Shown here in pieces: positions 12,230 to 15,864 of a stretch of DNA of 64,000 nt. The stretch is from an uncultured Actinomycetes bacterium (GTDB lineage: Bacteria; Actinomycetota; Aquicultoria; Subteraquimicrobiales; CAMTWV01), in the NCBI GenBank assembly GCA_947085535.1, contig CAMTWV010000002.1, forward strand, positions 94,199-158,198, given 5' to 3'. Both the position numbers and the translations under genes were made by a program. The number at the start of each line of letters is the position of its first letter. Positions within the stretch are counted from its first letter, which is position 1. The notes under the pieces were generated by a model that was not told where the DNA came from, did no database searches, and saw only the letters and a program-made list of their open reading frames with translations.

Positions 12230-12499
12230 TTATCCGCGCAAACCTAATTTTTTAATTACATCATTGTATCTTTTAGGGTCGATTTTTTTGATGTAAGCCA
12301 AAAGACTTCTTCTCTGCCCCACCATTTTAAGTAATCCGTGTCTTGAGCTATTATCTTTTTTGTGGATTTTGAAGTGGCTGGCTAATTTGTCGATTTTTTT
12401 TGTGAGAATTGCAATTTGGACTTCTGGGGAACCAGTATCAGTTGTATGCAGCTTAAAATCGTTAATAATCTTTTCTTTTTCGTCCTTAGCTAAAGACAT
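12230..12499 (-). CDS. rpsO: 30S ribosomal protein S15.
   Basis: 89 aa. [29 protein letters not shown] signature. Confidence 0.95.
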
Positions 12500-12684
12500 T
12501 TTTTCACCTCCCCTTTTTAATCCCGCTTACCAAGAATGCGTTGGTGATTCGCGATCCCAGTGAAACGGTGAAACAGCTTGTTGCCGCTCCATTGTAAAAA
12601 ATAATGATACCATAGGTTGAAATTGATGTAAAATTCAACCAAAATAGACAAGAAAAAATAGACAAGAAATTTTTGCTATCTTTA

Positions 12685-12713
12685 TTTACAAAATTGAGTT
12701 TATAAAATATATT
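12685..12713 (+). promoter_or_regulatory. Candidate sigma-70 promoter of the HTH-peptidase-7TM operon: -35 TTTACA (12685-12690), 17 nt spacer, -10 TATATT (12708-12713).
   Basis: Hexamers and spacing read directly from the sequence. SD AAAGGAGG at 12741-12748, 7 nt before the ATG at 12753. Confidence 0.4.
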
Positions 12714-12752
12714 TAAAGTCAGTAACGAAATTAAATTAAAAGGAGGATTAAA

Positions 12753-13142
12753 ATGGCAAGTATTGACGAAAAGTTGAGATTTTTATTTACCACACATTTA
12801 AGCCCTGACGGAGATGAATACACCTACGAGGAAGTTGCTCAAGGAACCGGAGGTGTAATTTCACCAAGTTATGTCTGGAATCTCCGAAATGGGAAGAAGC
12901 TGAATCCAAGCCGGTCTAAGATGGAAATACTGGCAAAATTCTTCGATGTGTCACCTTCCTACTTCTTTGATGAGGAAGACGCTCTAAAGAAAAGCTTAAG
13001 CATTGATACAAGAATCGTGAGAGCAATTGAAGACCCAGTGGTAAGAGACATTGCTTTGCGGGCAATGGACTTAAGCGACAGAAACAAAGAGTTTATTTTA
13101 GCTATGGTTGATAAAGCGAAAGAGTTAGTTGAGGAAAAATAG
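12753..13142 (+). CDS. XRE-family helix-turn-helix transcriptional regulator (ImmR/CapH-like: HTH plus helical C-terminal extension).
   Basis: HTH_3-type core (YTYEEVAQGTGGVISPSYVWNLRNGKKLNPSRSKMEILAKFFDVS) and about 50 aa helical tail. Strong SD. Confidence 0.85.
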   Translation: MASIDEKLRFLFTTHLSPDGDEYTYEEVAQGTGGVISPSYVWNLRNGKKLNPSRSKMEILAKFFDVSPSYFFDEEDALKKSLSIDTRIVRAIEDPVVRDIALRAMDLSDRNKEFILAMVDKAKELVEEK

Positions 13143-13660
13143 TGCTCAACCAGAGCAAGCTTAGAAAAAAGGTTAATAAATTGCTAAAAGAATTGAATTT
13201 TGAAGGAAGTTTTGATTCTTTTAGGTTTGTTGAGAAACTCGGGGAGCAATTAAACTTAAAGATAAAACTCCAATCTGTTCCCATGCCGCCCGGTTTTTTT
13301 GGCTTCTGGAGTTTAATCAATGACTGTCATGTCATTCTTTATCGGGCAAATACTTCTTGGTTTCATCAGCAACAAATTATCTTCCATGAATGCGGGCATA
13401 TTTGTTTAGGCCATCATTCAGGAAGCATTGAAAAGTTTTTAAAAAGAGAAATTCTCTACTCCGAGCCCGAGGAGCAAGAAGCAGAAACTTTTGCCACACT
13501 TCTTCTATGTAATGCTATAACTCAGGGATTGACTGAGCAAGGTATTTCTCTAAGCCAATATTATAACCAAAACAGTTCTTTTTACAACGAGTGTCCCCAG
13601 GATGTAATTTCAATGCAGGATTTTATGCTTCAATTAAAAGAAGTAATGGAAATGAGGTGA
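13142..13660 (+). CDS. ImmA/IrrE-family (COG2856) zinc metallopeptidase.
   Basis: HEXXH motif in IIFHECGHICLGHH. GTG start overlaps the upstream TAG (taGTG), implying translational coupling with the HTH gene. Confidence 0.8.
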   Translation: MLNQSKLRKKVNKLLKELNFEGSFDSFRFVEKLGEQLNLKIKLQSVPMPPGFFGFWSLINDCHVILYRANTSWFHQQQIIFHECGHICLGHHSGSIEKFLKREILYSEPEEQEAETFATLLLCNAITQGLTEQGISLSQYYNQNSSFYNECPQDVISMQDFMLQLKEVMEMR

Positions 13661-13670
13661 GGTAACTCCC

Positions 13671-14960
13671 TTGCTTTATTACTTAGATTACCTTTTTCTT
13701 ATGCTCTTTTGGACTTGTACTTTGTATGCGCTTAAAGCTTATTATGTAAATCCACGTGATTCGAAGAATAAGCATGTTTTTTTGGTTTTTTTATTTGCTT
13801 CTATTGCTTTTACCTTTGCCGCACCCATTATTGCTCAAAAATTCAATAAGTTTTTGGGAATTAGCAGCATCAGTCGACCAATCGAGAATATCTCGAGCCT
13901 TATAGCTCTTTACTTTGGCTACCTTTTTTTTACGGATTTTGCTCCTAAAAAAAAGAAAAGAATTCCATGGCTTACTTTCTATCTTTTTTTGGTTACTGTA
14001 GCTCTAATTTCAATTTTTTCCCTGTTTTTGTCCAAACCTCAGCTTGAACCAATTTTTTTGGGTGAGGACACAAGAAATTTATCTGTTTTCATTTACAGTT
14101 TAGTTCTTCAGTCCCTTTTTCTCCCCCTTTTTGCTATTTATGCTTTAAATTTTTATAGATATGCTCGCCTGGTCAAAGAGCAAGCAACAAGAGTCAGACT
14201 TTATTCTTTATCGATAGGTTGTTTAATGGGCGCTTCGGGTCGCATTCTTGAACTCGTTTACTGGTTTGATATGCGGTATTTTGCTTATCTAAAGTTTTTC
14301 GGATTCTCTGCGGTTATTAGAATAATCAATTTATTTATGGTTTTATTTCTTTACGCTGGTTTTATAATGCCTGCTTTTTTAAGGAAAATTGTAGAGTCGT
14401 TTGGCGAACTGTTAGGATTGCGTCGAACTCGATATAATTTGATTTCCTTGCTTGCTTTAATTAACGACGCCCGTTCTTTTCTTCATTCTGATAATGAAAT
14501 GATTAATTATGTGCGGCGACTGTGCGAAAAATTTTTCTTAAGCTTAGAGGAGACAGCGCAGGCGGTAGAAAGTGCTCGGATAATTTCTGCTCTGGCTGGA
14601 AAAACAGATCAAAATTCAACTATGGAGTCTGCTCAGGTTTTTCATAGCGCTGCCAAGTATGCAGCGGCTGCCTTTGCTGAAGAAATTAAGTTTTATGACC
14701 AGGTTTATAAGAATATTTTGTATGCCAAGGAAAGGTATGACGGAAAGGATGCTATTTCTGACTTAAGTGGGGATAAATTACCAATGGGCTCACGCATTAT
14801 AAAAGTGGTTGATTGCTATTTCAATTCAAATCTTTTTCCCTTCGAAGCAGTCAAAGTTTTAAAGAAAGGTGCGAATAAAGAATTTGATCCCGAAGTAATA
14901 AAAGCTTTTATTGAAATACTCGAGGAAGAAAAAAACCTCAATCTCTTAAGATCTTCTTAG
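13671..14960 (+). CDS. 7-TM membrane protein with a C-terminal degenerate (non-catalytic) HD-GYP-like domain.
   Basis: Seven predicted TM helices in residues 1-240. The C-terminus aligns to the HD-GYP tail (ERYDGKDAIS...GSRIIKVVDCYFNS...EFDPEVIKAFIEIL) but the HD dyad (ALAGK instead of LHDIGK) and GYP are lost. TTG start 10 nt after the peptidase stop. Confidence 0.7.
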   Translation: MLYYLDYLFLMLFWTCTLYALKAYYVNPRDSKNKHVFLVFLFASIAFTFAAPIIAQKFNKFLGISSISRPIENISSLIALYFGYLFFTDFAPKKKKRIPWLTFYLFLVTVALISIFSLFLSKPQLEPIFLGEDTRNLSVFIYSLVLQSLFLPLFAIYALNFYRYARLVKEQATRVRLYSLSIGCLMGASGRILELVYWFDMRYFAYLKFFGFSAVIRIINLFMVLFLYAGFIMPAFLRKIVESFGELLGLRRTRYNLISLLALINDARSFLHSDNEMINYVRRLCEKFFLSLEETAQAVESARIISALAGKTDQNSTMESAQVFHSAAKYAAAAFAEEIKFYDQVYKNILYAKERYDGKDAISDLSGDKLPMGSRIIKVVDCYFNSNLFPFEAVKVLKKGANKEFDPEVIKAFIEILEEEKNLNLLRSS

Positions 14961-15864
14961 CTTTTTTAATATCTTCATGTATCTCTTCTATTAGTTGTTT
15001 CTCATCTTCAAACATTTTAATATCTCGAACTCTTTCTCTTATTTCGAGTTCAACTGGCTTTCCATATAAATTCTGGTTAAATCTAAAAATATGAGCCTCA
15101 ATGTGTCTTTTTAAGATACCAAAAGTTGGACTCTCTCCTATGTGAATAACACACGGGTTTTTTTCAGCGTTATACCAAAAAAAGCCAGCATAGACTCCTT
15201 TTTTGGGAACAGAAGCTTTATCGGGTGTTTTTATGTTAGCGGTAGGAAGTCCTAATTTTGAGTGAGCAATTCCTGTTCCTTTGATAACTTTCCCCGTAAT
15301 TCTTGGCCAGTGCCCGAGCAAACTTTTTGCTTTCTTAATATCCCCTGCTCTAATATGGTGTCTTATATTGCTGCTGCTGACCAATTCTTCCTCCAGATAC
15401 AGGAATGGTACGATTTTAGTTCCAAAACCCGTCTTTTTTTCGTAACCAATTAAGAAATCATGATCTCCTTTTGCGCCTTTTCCAAAATGAAAGTCCTCGC
15501 CTACCACTAAACTTGAGGCTTTAAGTTTTTTAAGGACTATTTCGTTAAGGAATTTTTCAGGGCTTAAGTTAGCTAACCGTTTGTTAAATTTAAGGATGAG
15601 TAAATAATCGACACCTAATTCTTCTATTAACTCTGCTTTTAAATGGGTGGCTGTCAAAATGGGGGGATGACTGCCTGGTTTAAGAACTTCGAGCGGATGA
15701 GGCTCAAAAGTAATAACAATGCTTTTGGCTCCACTTATTTTTGCAGTTTCTACCGCGGTTTTAATGATTTTTTGGTGCCCTTTATGAACACCATCAAAAA
15801 CGCCGATGGTGACAACGCTTTTTTCTATGAATGGCATGTCTTTAAGTTCTCTTATAATTTCCAT
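14938..15864 (-). CDS. ribF: Bifunctional riboflavin kinase / FMN adenylyltransferase.
   Basis: N-terminal FAD synthetase (GVFDGVHKGHQ) and C-terminal riboflavin kinase domain. 308 aa. Confidence 0.92.
   Translation of the reverse strand: MEIIRELKDMPFIEKSVVTIGVFDGVHKGHQKIIKTAVETAKISGAKSIVITFEPHPLEVLKPGSHPPILTATHLKAELIEELGVDYLLILKFNKRLANLSPEKFLNEIVLKKLKASSLVVGEDFHFGKGAKGDHDFLIGYEKKTGFGTKIVPFLYLEEELVSSSNIRHHIRAGDIKKAKSLLGHWPRITGKVIKGTGIAHSKLGLPTANIKTPDKASVPKKGVYAGFFWYNAEKNPCVIHIGESPTFGILKRHIEAHIFRFNQNLYGKPVELEIRERVRDIKMFEDEKQLIEEIHEDIKKAKKILRD

Follow-up and report, generated by a model that had tools for sequence, protein, structure and literature searches.

We analysed a 64,000-nucleotide stretch of DNA (hereafter the window; positions 94,199 to 158,198, forward strand, of contig CAMTWV010000002.1, assembly GCA_947085535.1) from an uncultured actinobacterium of the lineage Aquicultoria, Subteraquimicrobiales, in which a trio of plus-strand genes lies between the minus-strand genes rpsO and ribF. 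According to the open reading frame (ORF) list, the trio comprises a gene for an XRE-type helix-turn-helix (HTH) protein (12753-13142, ATG start, 129 amino acids), a gene for an HExxH peptidase (13142-13660, GTG start, 172 amino acids) and a third gene, here called gene 3, for a seven-transmembrane (7TM) protein with a degenerate HD-GYP domain (13671-14960, TTG start, 429 amino acids). The genes are tightly packed: base 13142 is common to the HTH stop codon TAG and the peptidase start codon GTG (taGTG), 10 nucleotides (13661-13670) separate the peptidase gene from the TTG codon of gene 3, and gene 3 overlaps ribF convergently by 23 nucleotides. The left flank, rpsO (ribosomal protein S15; 12230-12499, minus strand), is identified by Pfam Ribosomal_S15 on the orthologue in the related locus L002, and the right flank, ribF (FAD synthetase/riboflavin kinase; 14938-15864, minus strand), by Pfam FAD_syn and Flavokinase on its orthologues. 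All remaining ORFs of at least 150 amino acids in the window, shadows of longer ORFs excluded, are on the minus strand. An earlier reading made from the letters alone (the original prediction) had described the same three genes, the same packing and a minus-strand remainder; its coordinates match the ORF list exactly, and its statement on the remainder holds for the non-shadow ORFs of this length.

The three genes are real and under purifying selection, since the ratios of nonsynonymous to synonymous substitution rates (dN/dS) against the 96%-identical relative L002 are low: 0.05 for the HTH gene, 0.23 for the peptidase gene and 0.31 for gene 3. For the housekeeping genes on either side the ratios were 0.12-0.19, and dS was alike across the region. 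The GTG and TTG starts are supported because the homologue alignments of both genes begin at residue 1.

The HTH protein has an N-terminal extension, followed by the HTH domain (residues 23-75) and by a helical C-terminal region that is conserved (D94, A101, L107). It matched Pfam HTH_3 above the cut-off (26.7 bits against 23; 5.6e-6), its best PADLOC match was capH (3.8e-8), and the HTH proteins across trios share 41-69% identity. This protein is presumed to be both an autorepressor and the substrate of the protease. In the peptidase, the HExxH motif is H82-E83-x-x-H86, encoded at 13385-13399 on the plus strand, and E111 or E115 is the candidate third zinc ligand. These five residues are invariant in alignments of 10 and 25 homologues, as are H75, H91, A114 and A118, and by its HExxH motif and ligand residues the protein is predicted to be a zinc metallopeptidase. 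It possesses the HExxH motif with a downstream Glu and the peptidase-domain fold of the ImmA/IrrE family, but it scored 19.2 bits against Pfam Peptidase_M78 (PF06114), just below the cut-off of 22. Precomputed PF06114 matches were present for the orthologue in locus L006 and, weakly, for that in L115. The top structural match of the peptidase was CapP, with 121 amino acids aligned to the 278-amino-acid CapP, and its best PADLOC match was capP. CapP and IrrE are composed of peptidase, HTH and GAF domains, and the activating single-stranded DNA (ssDNA) is bound in a groove between the peptidase and GAF domains (bioRxiv 10.64898/2026.05.16.725639). In contrast, the 172-amino-acid peptidase of the window is the first, ImmA/IrrE/CapP-type peptidase domain alone, and has neither this three-domain architecture with its ssDNA groove nor a conserved cysteine switch.

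The AlphaFold2 model of the gene 3 product (mean pLDDT, the predicted local distance difference test score, 82.5) consists of two parts. Residues 1-235 (13671-14375, plus strand) form a 7TM bundle, homologous to the membrane domain of MAB_1171c proteins; the K/R-rich loops of the bundle indicate an extracellular N-terminus and a cytoplasmic C-terminus. No Pfam model recognises this domain, and all 60 matches in a fold search were receptor-like 7TM bundles, with no transporter among them. Residues 236-429 (14376-14960, plus strand) adopt a cytoplasmic HD-GYP fold devoid of catalytic residues; at the sequence level, HD_5 matched the C-terminal half only. Motif alignment against 25 true HD-GYP domains revealed SA in place of HD, AKE in place of HHE and AIS in place of GYP; the 8-residue AMTSxRxYR substrate loop is deleted, and ERYDG, LPxGSRI, VD and FDP are kept. 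Thus fold and domain homology place the protein with HD-GYP domains, whereas of the metal residues H...HD...H...HH...D only the final D is retained. The GYP motif itself occurs in one of 10 members of the gene 3 family (P0008). Like the phosphodiesterases RpfG, PmGH, PA4781 and DvhD and the degenerate proteins Bd1817 and PA2572, gene 3 retains the whole fold with ERYDG, LPxGxRI and FDP; it differs from them in having lost the HD dyad, the HH pair, GYP and the AMTSxRxYR loop and in its fusion to a 7TM domain. An active phosphodiesterase is ruled out by this motif loss. The original prediction had described a 7TM protein whose HD-GYP domain had lost the HD dyad and the GYP motif, and this description is correct.

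To place the trio in a wider context, we searched gene 3 with phmmer exhaustively against 1.84 billion representative sequences. Among the 761 matches, about eight were full length and the rest covered the HD-GYP part alone. A metagenome scan with the gene 3 alignment returned mostly ordinary HD-GYP proteins, only 3 of 80 loci being full length and one of these new; by these searches, the gene 3 family is rare. Wherever the DNA around a full-length gene 3 homologue was long enough, an HTH gene and a peptidase gene were present upstream of it; these loci represent at least six unrelated contexts, with 26-54% identity of gene 3 to that of the window. In L001/L003 (gene 3 50% identical; HTH protein, peptidase and 7TM protein of 129, 179 and 466 amino acids), the trio lies between two PIN toxin-antitoxin pairs, with an integrase about 5 kb from L001. 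It is followed by another HTH gene in L006 (31%; 127, 161 and 421 amino acids), by a ketoacyl synthase gene in L008 (35%; 129, 172 and 498), by an overlapping PNP_UDP_1 gene in L009/L036 (31%; 220, 183-188 and 431) and by an overlapping FAD monooxygenase gene in L115 (28%; 134, 173 and 467). The trio is therefore a real and recurring module; whether the HTH-ImmA-7TM arrangement recurs had been posed as a check by the original prediction. The 220-amino-acid HTH proteins of L009 (4034-4696) and L036 (3054-3716) carry an extra N-terminal HTH, which gives a tandem-HTH repressor. In these two loci (L009 1124-8568), the trio and its PNP_UDP_1 gene are located between a gene for an OLD/AriA/GajA-like ATPase and a gene resembling pP_pnuc_1/Argonaute-associated nucleases; an IS481-type transposase gene is also close by in L036. 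This was the most defence-island-like context seen.

Such neighbourhoods bear on the possibility that the trio is a protease-gated defence or abortive-infection system, in which an HTH/peptidase pair of the CapH/CapP kind would be derepressed upon infection or DNA damage and the 7TM protein would be the effector or a sensor of a nucleotide signal. The original prediction had named such functions among its possibilities, but we consider this unlikely. The capH and capP matches and the structural similarity to CapP are consistent with it, as are the ATPase (1e-15) and nuclease-like (5.5e-8) genes around the trio of L009/L036, the fourth gene there, a nucleosidase that resembles a PN-superfamily effector (3.8e-11), a HerA-like ATPase near L115 (7e-25), and the toxin-antitoxin pairs and integrase around L001. 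However, PADLOC matched the two regulators (capH, capP) and gave no match for gene 3, no homologue of gene 3 or of P0089, a DUF6545-type 7TM protein considered below, was found in phage genomes, and the peptidase is devoid of the GAF/ssDNA-sensing part of CapP. The window trio has no CBASS, BREX or other known defence genes attached to it.

The relatives of gene 3 extend beyond its own family. Gene 3 scored 63.3 bits (2e-17) against NCBIfam NF042915, 'MAB_1171c family putative transporter', below the cut-off of 100, with the match covering profile positions 2-239 of 362. A bona fide member of that family, P0089 (206 bits; Pfam DUF6545), is encoded in a trio of its own in locus L013, whose HTH protein aligned with that of the window with an hhalign probability of 99.9 (46% identity) and whose HExxH protein aligned with a probability of 99.3. 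The profiles of the window and MAB_1171c 7TM families aligned with a probability of 99.5 (E 9e-23, 313 columns). The window trio shares with MAB_1171c/DUF6545 loci the membrane domain, the HTH and peptidase partners, the gene order and the translational coupling, and differs from them in that its 7TM protein has a complete HD-GYP fold, whereas the Actinomycetes proteins have the shorter DUF6545. In tblastn searches of 72,556 plasmids, P0089 matched 21 records (20 from Streptomyces and one from Amycolatopsis) and the window HTH protein matched 55 plasmids, the organisms named for the latter all being actinomycetes (Streptomyces, Mycobacterium, Pseudonocardia, Rhodococcus, Nocardia, Kineococcus and others). 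A peptidase gene lies directly upstream of the 7TM gene, often overlapping it, in all 15 annotated actinobacterial plasmid loci with MAB_1171c/DUF6545, and an HTH gene precedes the peptidase gene in at least 13 of them. By these alignments, the window trio is a deep-branching (Ca. Aquicultoria) version of a trio that is widespread on plasmids of Actinomycetes (Streptomyces, Mycobacterium, Amycolatopsis, Kineococcus).

In RefSeq, the HTH protein of the trio is labelled 'XRE regulator' and the 7TM protein 'MAB_1171c family putative transporter' (DUF6545), while the peptidase appears as 'toxin', 'toxin-antitoxin system, toxin component', 'ImmA/IrrE family metallo-endopeptidase', 'ParH-like protein' or hypothetical. 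The peptidases named 'ParH-like protein' include P0195, P0197 and P0207, and a literature search did not find the origin of this name. The toxin labels would fit a toxin-antitoxin or addiction module with three components, related to the Xre-COG2856 type, in which the peptidase or the membrane protein would be toxic and the XRE protein the antitoxin. This agrees with the Xre-COG2856 prediction of Makarova et al. 2009 (PMC2701414), to which the 'toxin' label of the peptidase traces back, with the frequency of the trio on plasmids and with the neighbouring toxin-antitoxin pairs in L001. However, the same study considered COG2856 most likely to cleave the Xre repressor rather than to be a classical toxin (PMC2701414), the proposal otherwise draws on labels, and metabolic enzymes are regularly coupled to the trio as a fourth gene. 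An addiction module is accordingly the least probable reading and, in our view, highly improbable.

Twelve of the 15 plasmid loci carry a fourth gene 3' of the 7TM gene and co-oriented with it, the two genes overlapping in most cases. The fourth gene encodes a cytochrome P450 in five and an amidase in two; in one locus each it encodes an FAD monooxygenase, a PAP2 phosphatase, a polysaccharide deacetylase, a hypothetical protein, or a second DUF6545 protein followed by an oxidoreductase. In the last case (L027 3486-7424, Streptomyces), the trio is followed by a tandem second DUF6545 7TM gene and then by a pyridine nucleotide-disulfide oxidoreductase gene. The other three plasmid loci are bare trios, and the window trio likewise has no fourth gene. 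Two bare Streptomyces trios, L030 (4614-6659) and L033 (4368-6235), are mutual closest relatives, and both are followed by convergent genes for SMP-30/gluconolactonase and DUF1611, which may be a conserved neighbour rather than a chance one. Because the fourth gene varies or is missing while the 7TM gene stays, the 7TM protein is the constant core partner and the fourth gene is the true, variable cargo. The original prediction had taken the 7TM protein for the single cargo of the regulatory pair, which these data reverse. It had also asked whether the trio sits in defence islands; the contexts of L009/L036, L115 and L001 are suggestive in this respect, but the fourth genes are mostly small-molecule enzymes (P450, monooxygenase, amidase, PAP2), which are atypical effectors and speak against a defence function.

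The family name and the fourth genes raise another alternative, namely that the 7TM protein is a transporter or membrane partner handling the substrate of the downstream enzyme, with the HTH/peptidase pair as an ordinary stress regulator of an uptake-and-modification operon. Besides the NCBIfam name, the frequent translational coupling of the 7TM gene to P450, monooxygenase, amidase or PAP2 genes is in line with this idea, and a transposon mutant of MAB_1171c in Mycobacterium abscessus showed lower minimal inhibitory concentrations of cefoxitin and clarithromycin and about 50% less biofilm (PMC8707978). The transporter label in that paper is an annotation rather than a measurement (PMC8707978). 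The fold search, which returned receptor-like bundles, the conserved HD-GYP-derived cytoplasmic domain of signalling type, which would be unusual in a transporter, and the bare trios, that of the window included, in which no enzyme is present to be fed, all argue against a transporter, and we regard this role as quite unlikely.

Peptidase and 7TM protein have diversified together. Across 23 trios, their similarity matrices were correlated with r=0.84 (0.88 for Streptomyces alone), and the observed value was not attained in any of 2000 permutations; the 7TM subclades are also followed by the kind of fourth gene present. Moreover, head-to-head doublets were observed on plasmids (L024 1-1546, L031 1-1497, L022 1022-3143), in which a peptidase+7TM(+enzyme) unit is divergent from a complete HTH+peptidase+7TM+enzyme unit. 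No HTH-like ORF was found in the intervening gap of L024 and L031, and no HTH gene is annotated beside the second pair in L022, as if two sensor/protease pairs shared one repressor. Each 7TM protein thus keeps a private peptidase. A 7TM protein that served as a mere regulated effector would not readily account for the HTH-less pairs, which again weighs against a defence system of the CapH/CapP kind. As to the cytoplasmic domain, DUF6545 could not be aligned with true HD-GYP domains (profile probability 8%), but it aligned with the first part of the HD-GYP-like domain of the window family (probability 78.5, E 1.7e-5, 94 columns). Because DUF6545 thus aligns with the window domain and not with true HD-GYP domains, the window family may be an intermediate and DUF6545 a decayed HD-GYP domain, a proposal in which we have moderate confidence.

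The position of the trio in the window is not recent. It also lies between rpsO and ribF in a partial locus, L004, from a metagenome-assembled genome of Ca. Subteraquimicrobiales (class Ca. Aquicultoria, Actinomycetota), and in a complete one, L034, from a Logan assembly (gene 3 54% identical; 129, 167 and 427 amino acids). Compared with the window, L004 and L034 show 70% identity in ribF, 60% in truB and about 53-54% in gene 3. The G+C fraction of the trio is 0.367 and that of its surroundings 0.36-0.41. Because L004 and L034 share the junction at such low flank identity and the base composition equals that of the surroundings, the trio is an old resident of the rpsO|ribF junction in this order. 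A recent horizontal insertion is ruled out by this synteny and composition, and with it the 'insertion' of the original prediction. In other lineages the trio occupies other sites. The description of the junction as universally conserved was also too strong: in Escherichia coli, rpsO adjoins truB and ribF lies elsewhere. Stable inheritance inside a housekeeping cluster with low dN/dS is a further point against a defence system, and vertical stability in a core-gene cluster likewise argues against an addiction module.

Comparison with L034 also delimited the regulatory DNA upstream of the trio, where two conserved blocks were recognised between rpsO and the HTH gene. One, at 12680-12713 (plus strand), is a candidate promoter/operator block proposed from a promoter scan (10 of 12) and conservation with L034; it contains a predicted -35 element TTTACA (12685-12690), a 17-nucleotide spacer and a predicted -10 element TATATT (12708-12713). 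About 30 nucleotides of it (TTTATTTACAAAAnTGAGTTTATAAAATA) are nearly invariant between the window and L034, despite only 54-61% identity of the trio proteins, and we infer that the block acts as the promoter/operator of the trio. The other conserved block is the 5' leader of rpsO (12443-12580, minus strand), which is strongly conserved between the window and L034 and reaches about 12580. Rfam RF00114, the S15 leader, matched it weakly at 12443-12559, below threshold (23.1 bits against a gathering score of 39.5, E 0.019), and this region may represent a divergent form, in this actinobacterial class, of the S15 autoregulatory leader. The predicted rpsO promoter (12632-12604, minus strand; TTTACA/TATCAT with TG) and the trio promoter (12685-12713, plus strand) stand back to back about 50 nucleotides apart. 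Between them, a repeat search found a 14-nucleotide tandem repeat (AATAGACAAGAAA twice; 12643-12669, plus strand), which is present in L002. Because it is missing from L034, the repeat was downgraded to a lineage-specific feature and is a weak operator candidate. A repressor bound between the two promoters could also influence rpsO-pnp transcription. In other loci, a palindromic (T)ACTATAG(TA) sequence lies 5' of the HTH gene, at -32 in L001, -77/-36 in L008, -99 in L009 and -100 in L036 relative to the start codon. It spans three diverged trio lineages (L001, L008 and L009/L036), the background frequency of CTATAG across these loci being 0.06 per kb, and it could serve as an operator or simply belong to a -10 box. 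Comparison of upstream regions did not find it in the window, L034 or the Actinomycetes loci.

Taken together, these data lead us to propose, tentatively and with somewhat less than even confidence, that the trio forms a self-contained derepression switch with three components, operated by proteolysis, in which a signal would pass from the 7TM protein to the protease and on to the repressor. The XRE protein would repress the promoter of its own operon, and elsewhere with it the variable fourth enzyme gene, and the small ImmA-like zinc peptidase would inactivate the repressor by cleavage. These two roles are suggested by the homology with ImmR/ImmA, CapH/CapP and DdrO/IrrE. The 7TM protein would be the signal receiver and would gate the peptidase through its cytoplasmic HD-GYP-derived domain without hydrolysis; we infer sensing and gating by this protein because the peptidase is devoid of the GAF and HTH sensor domains of CapP/IrrE. 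A 7TM-gated model also seems the most economical, since the peptidase has a private, co-diversifying 7TM partner with a conserved non-catalytic cytoplasmic domain. The enzymes encoded downstream in other genomes would point to small-molecule or lipid-type cues. The copy in the window is bare, with no output gene, and would regulate only itself or distant targets.

Systems built on related principles are known. In ICEBs1 of Bacillus subtilis, the gene for the XRE repressor ImmR is followed by that for ImmA, a single-domain HExxH peptidase of about 170 amino acids that cleaves the repressor and is activated by RapI or RecA. ImmA itself lacks a sensor domain and has to be activated by another protein. 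The HTH/peptidase pair of the window resembles ImmR/ImmA in gene order, in size and in the absence of a sensor domain from the peptidase. It differs in that no integrase or mobile-element cargo accompanies it, in that a 7TM membrane protein from the same operon, rather than a soluble tetratricopeptide repeat protein, is the proposed activator, and in that the peptidase is only marginal on the Pfam M78 profile. CapH/CapP, from CBASS and other defence operons, and IrrE/DdrO of Deinococcus are set apart by the three-domain proteases described above. The likeness to BlaR1/BlaI and MecR1/MecI, in which a membrane sensor and a zinc protease remove a repressor and induce an operon, is a functional analogy only. 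The logic of the proposed switch would be that of a split BlaR1/BlaI, in which the sensor would be one polypeptide and the protease another, or that of RapI acting on ImmA/ImmR.

Our literature search found no paper mentioning 'DUF6545', found MAB_1171c in one paper only, as a transposon mutant, and found no description of the trio or of a 7TM partner for such a protease. The original prediction had not recognised the trio as a described system; this agrees with the search, although the three genes are individually annotated in RefSeq. The principle of a repressor paired with an ImmA-like protease is known, and the trio itself is an uncharacterised cassette. The interpretation given by the original prediction is thus partly right: the trio is a real module, which recurs, but it is neither a recent insertion nor an oddity standing alone, and the 7TM protein is not its cargo.

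Pairs of a repressor and an ImmA-like protease control mobile elements, radiation responses and phage defence. A dedicated, co-evolving 7TM partner would, if the proposed switch is correct, give a concrete and testable answer to how signals reach the small single-domain proteases. A function would thereby be provided for the MAB_1171c/DUF6545 family as well, whose members are frequent in Streptomyces and pathogenic mycobacteria, in many cases coupled to orphan cytochrome P450s, and for which 'transporter' and 'toxin' are bare labels. In addition, the window family appears to connect DUF6545 to HD-GYP domains, which suggests an origin for DUF6545. Beyond this, a wider proposal, which we hold to be rather doubtful at present, is that the trio represents a new class of bacterial transmembrane signalling, in which a 7TM receptor resembling G-protein-coupled receptors would act through a cytoplasmic domain descended from an HD-GYP phosphodiesterase, which can still be recognised in the window and has shrunk to DUF6545 in Actinomycetes. 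The receptor would activate its own ImmA-like protease, and the XRE repressor would be destroyed. If so, ligands in the membrane or outside the cell would act through hundreds of copies of the cassette in Streptomyces, Mycobacterium and their relatives to induce P450s, monooxygenases, amidases and further enzymes.

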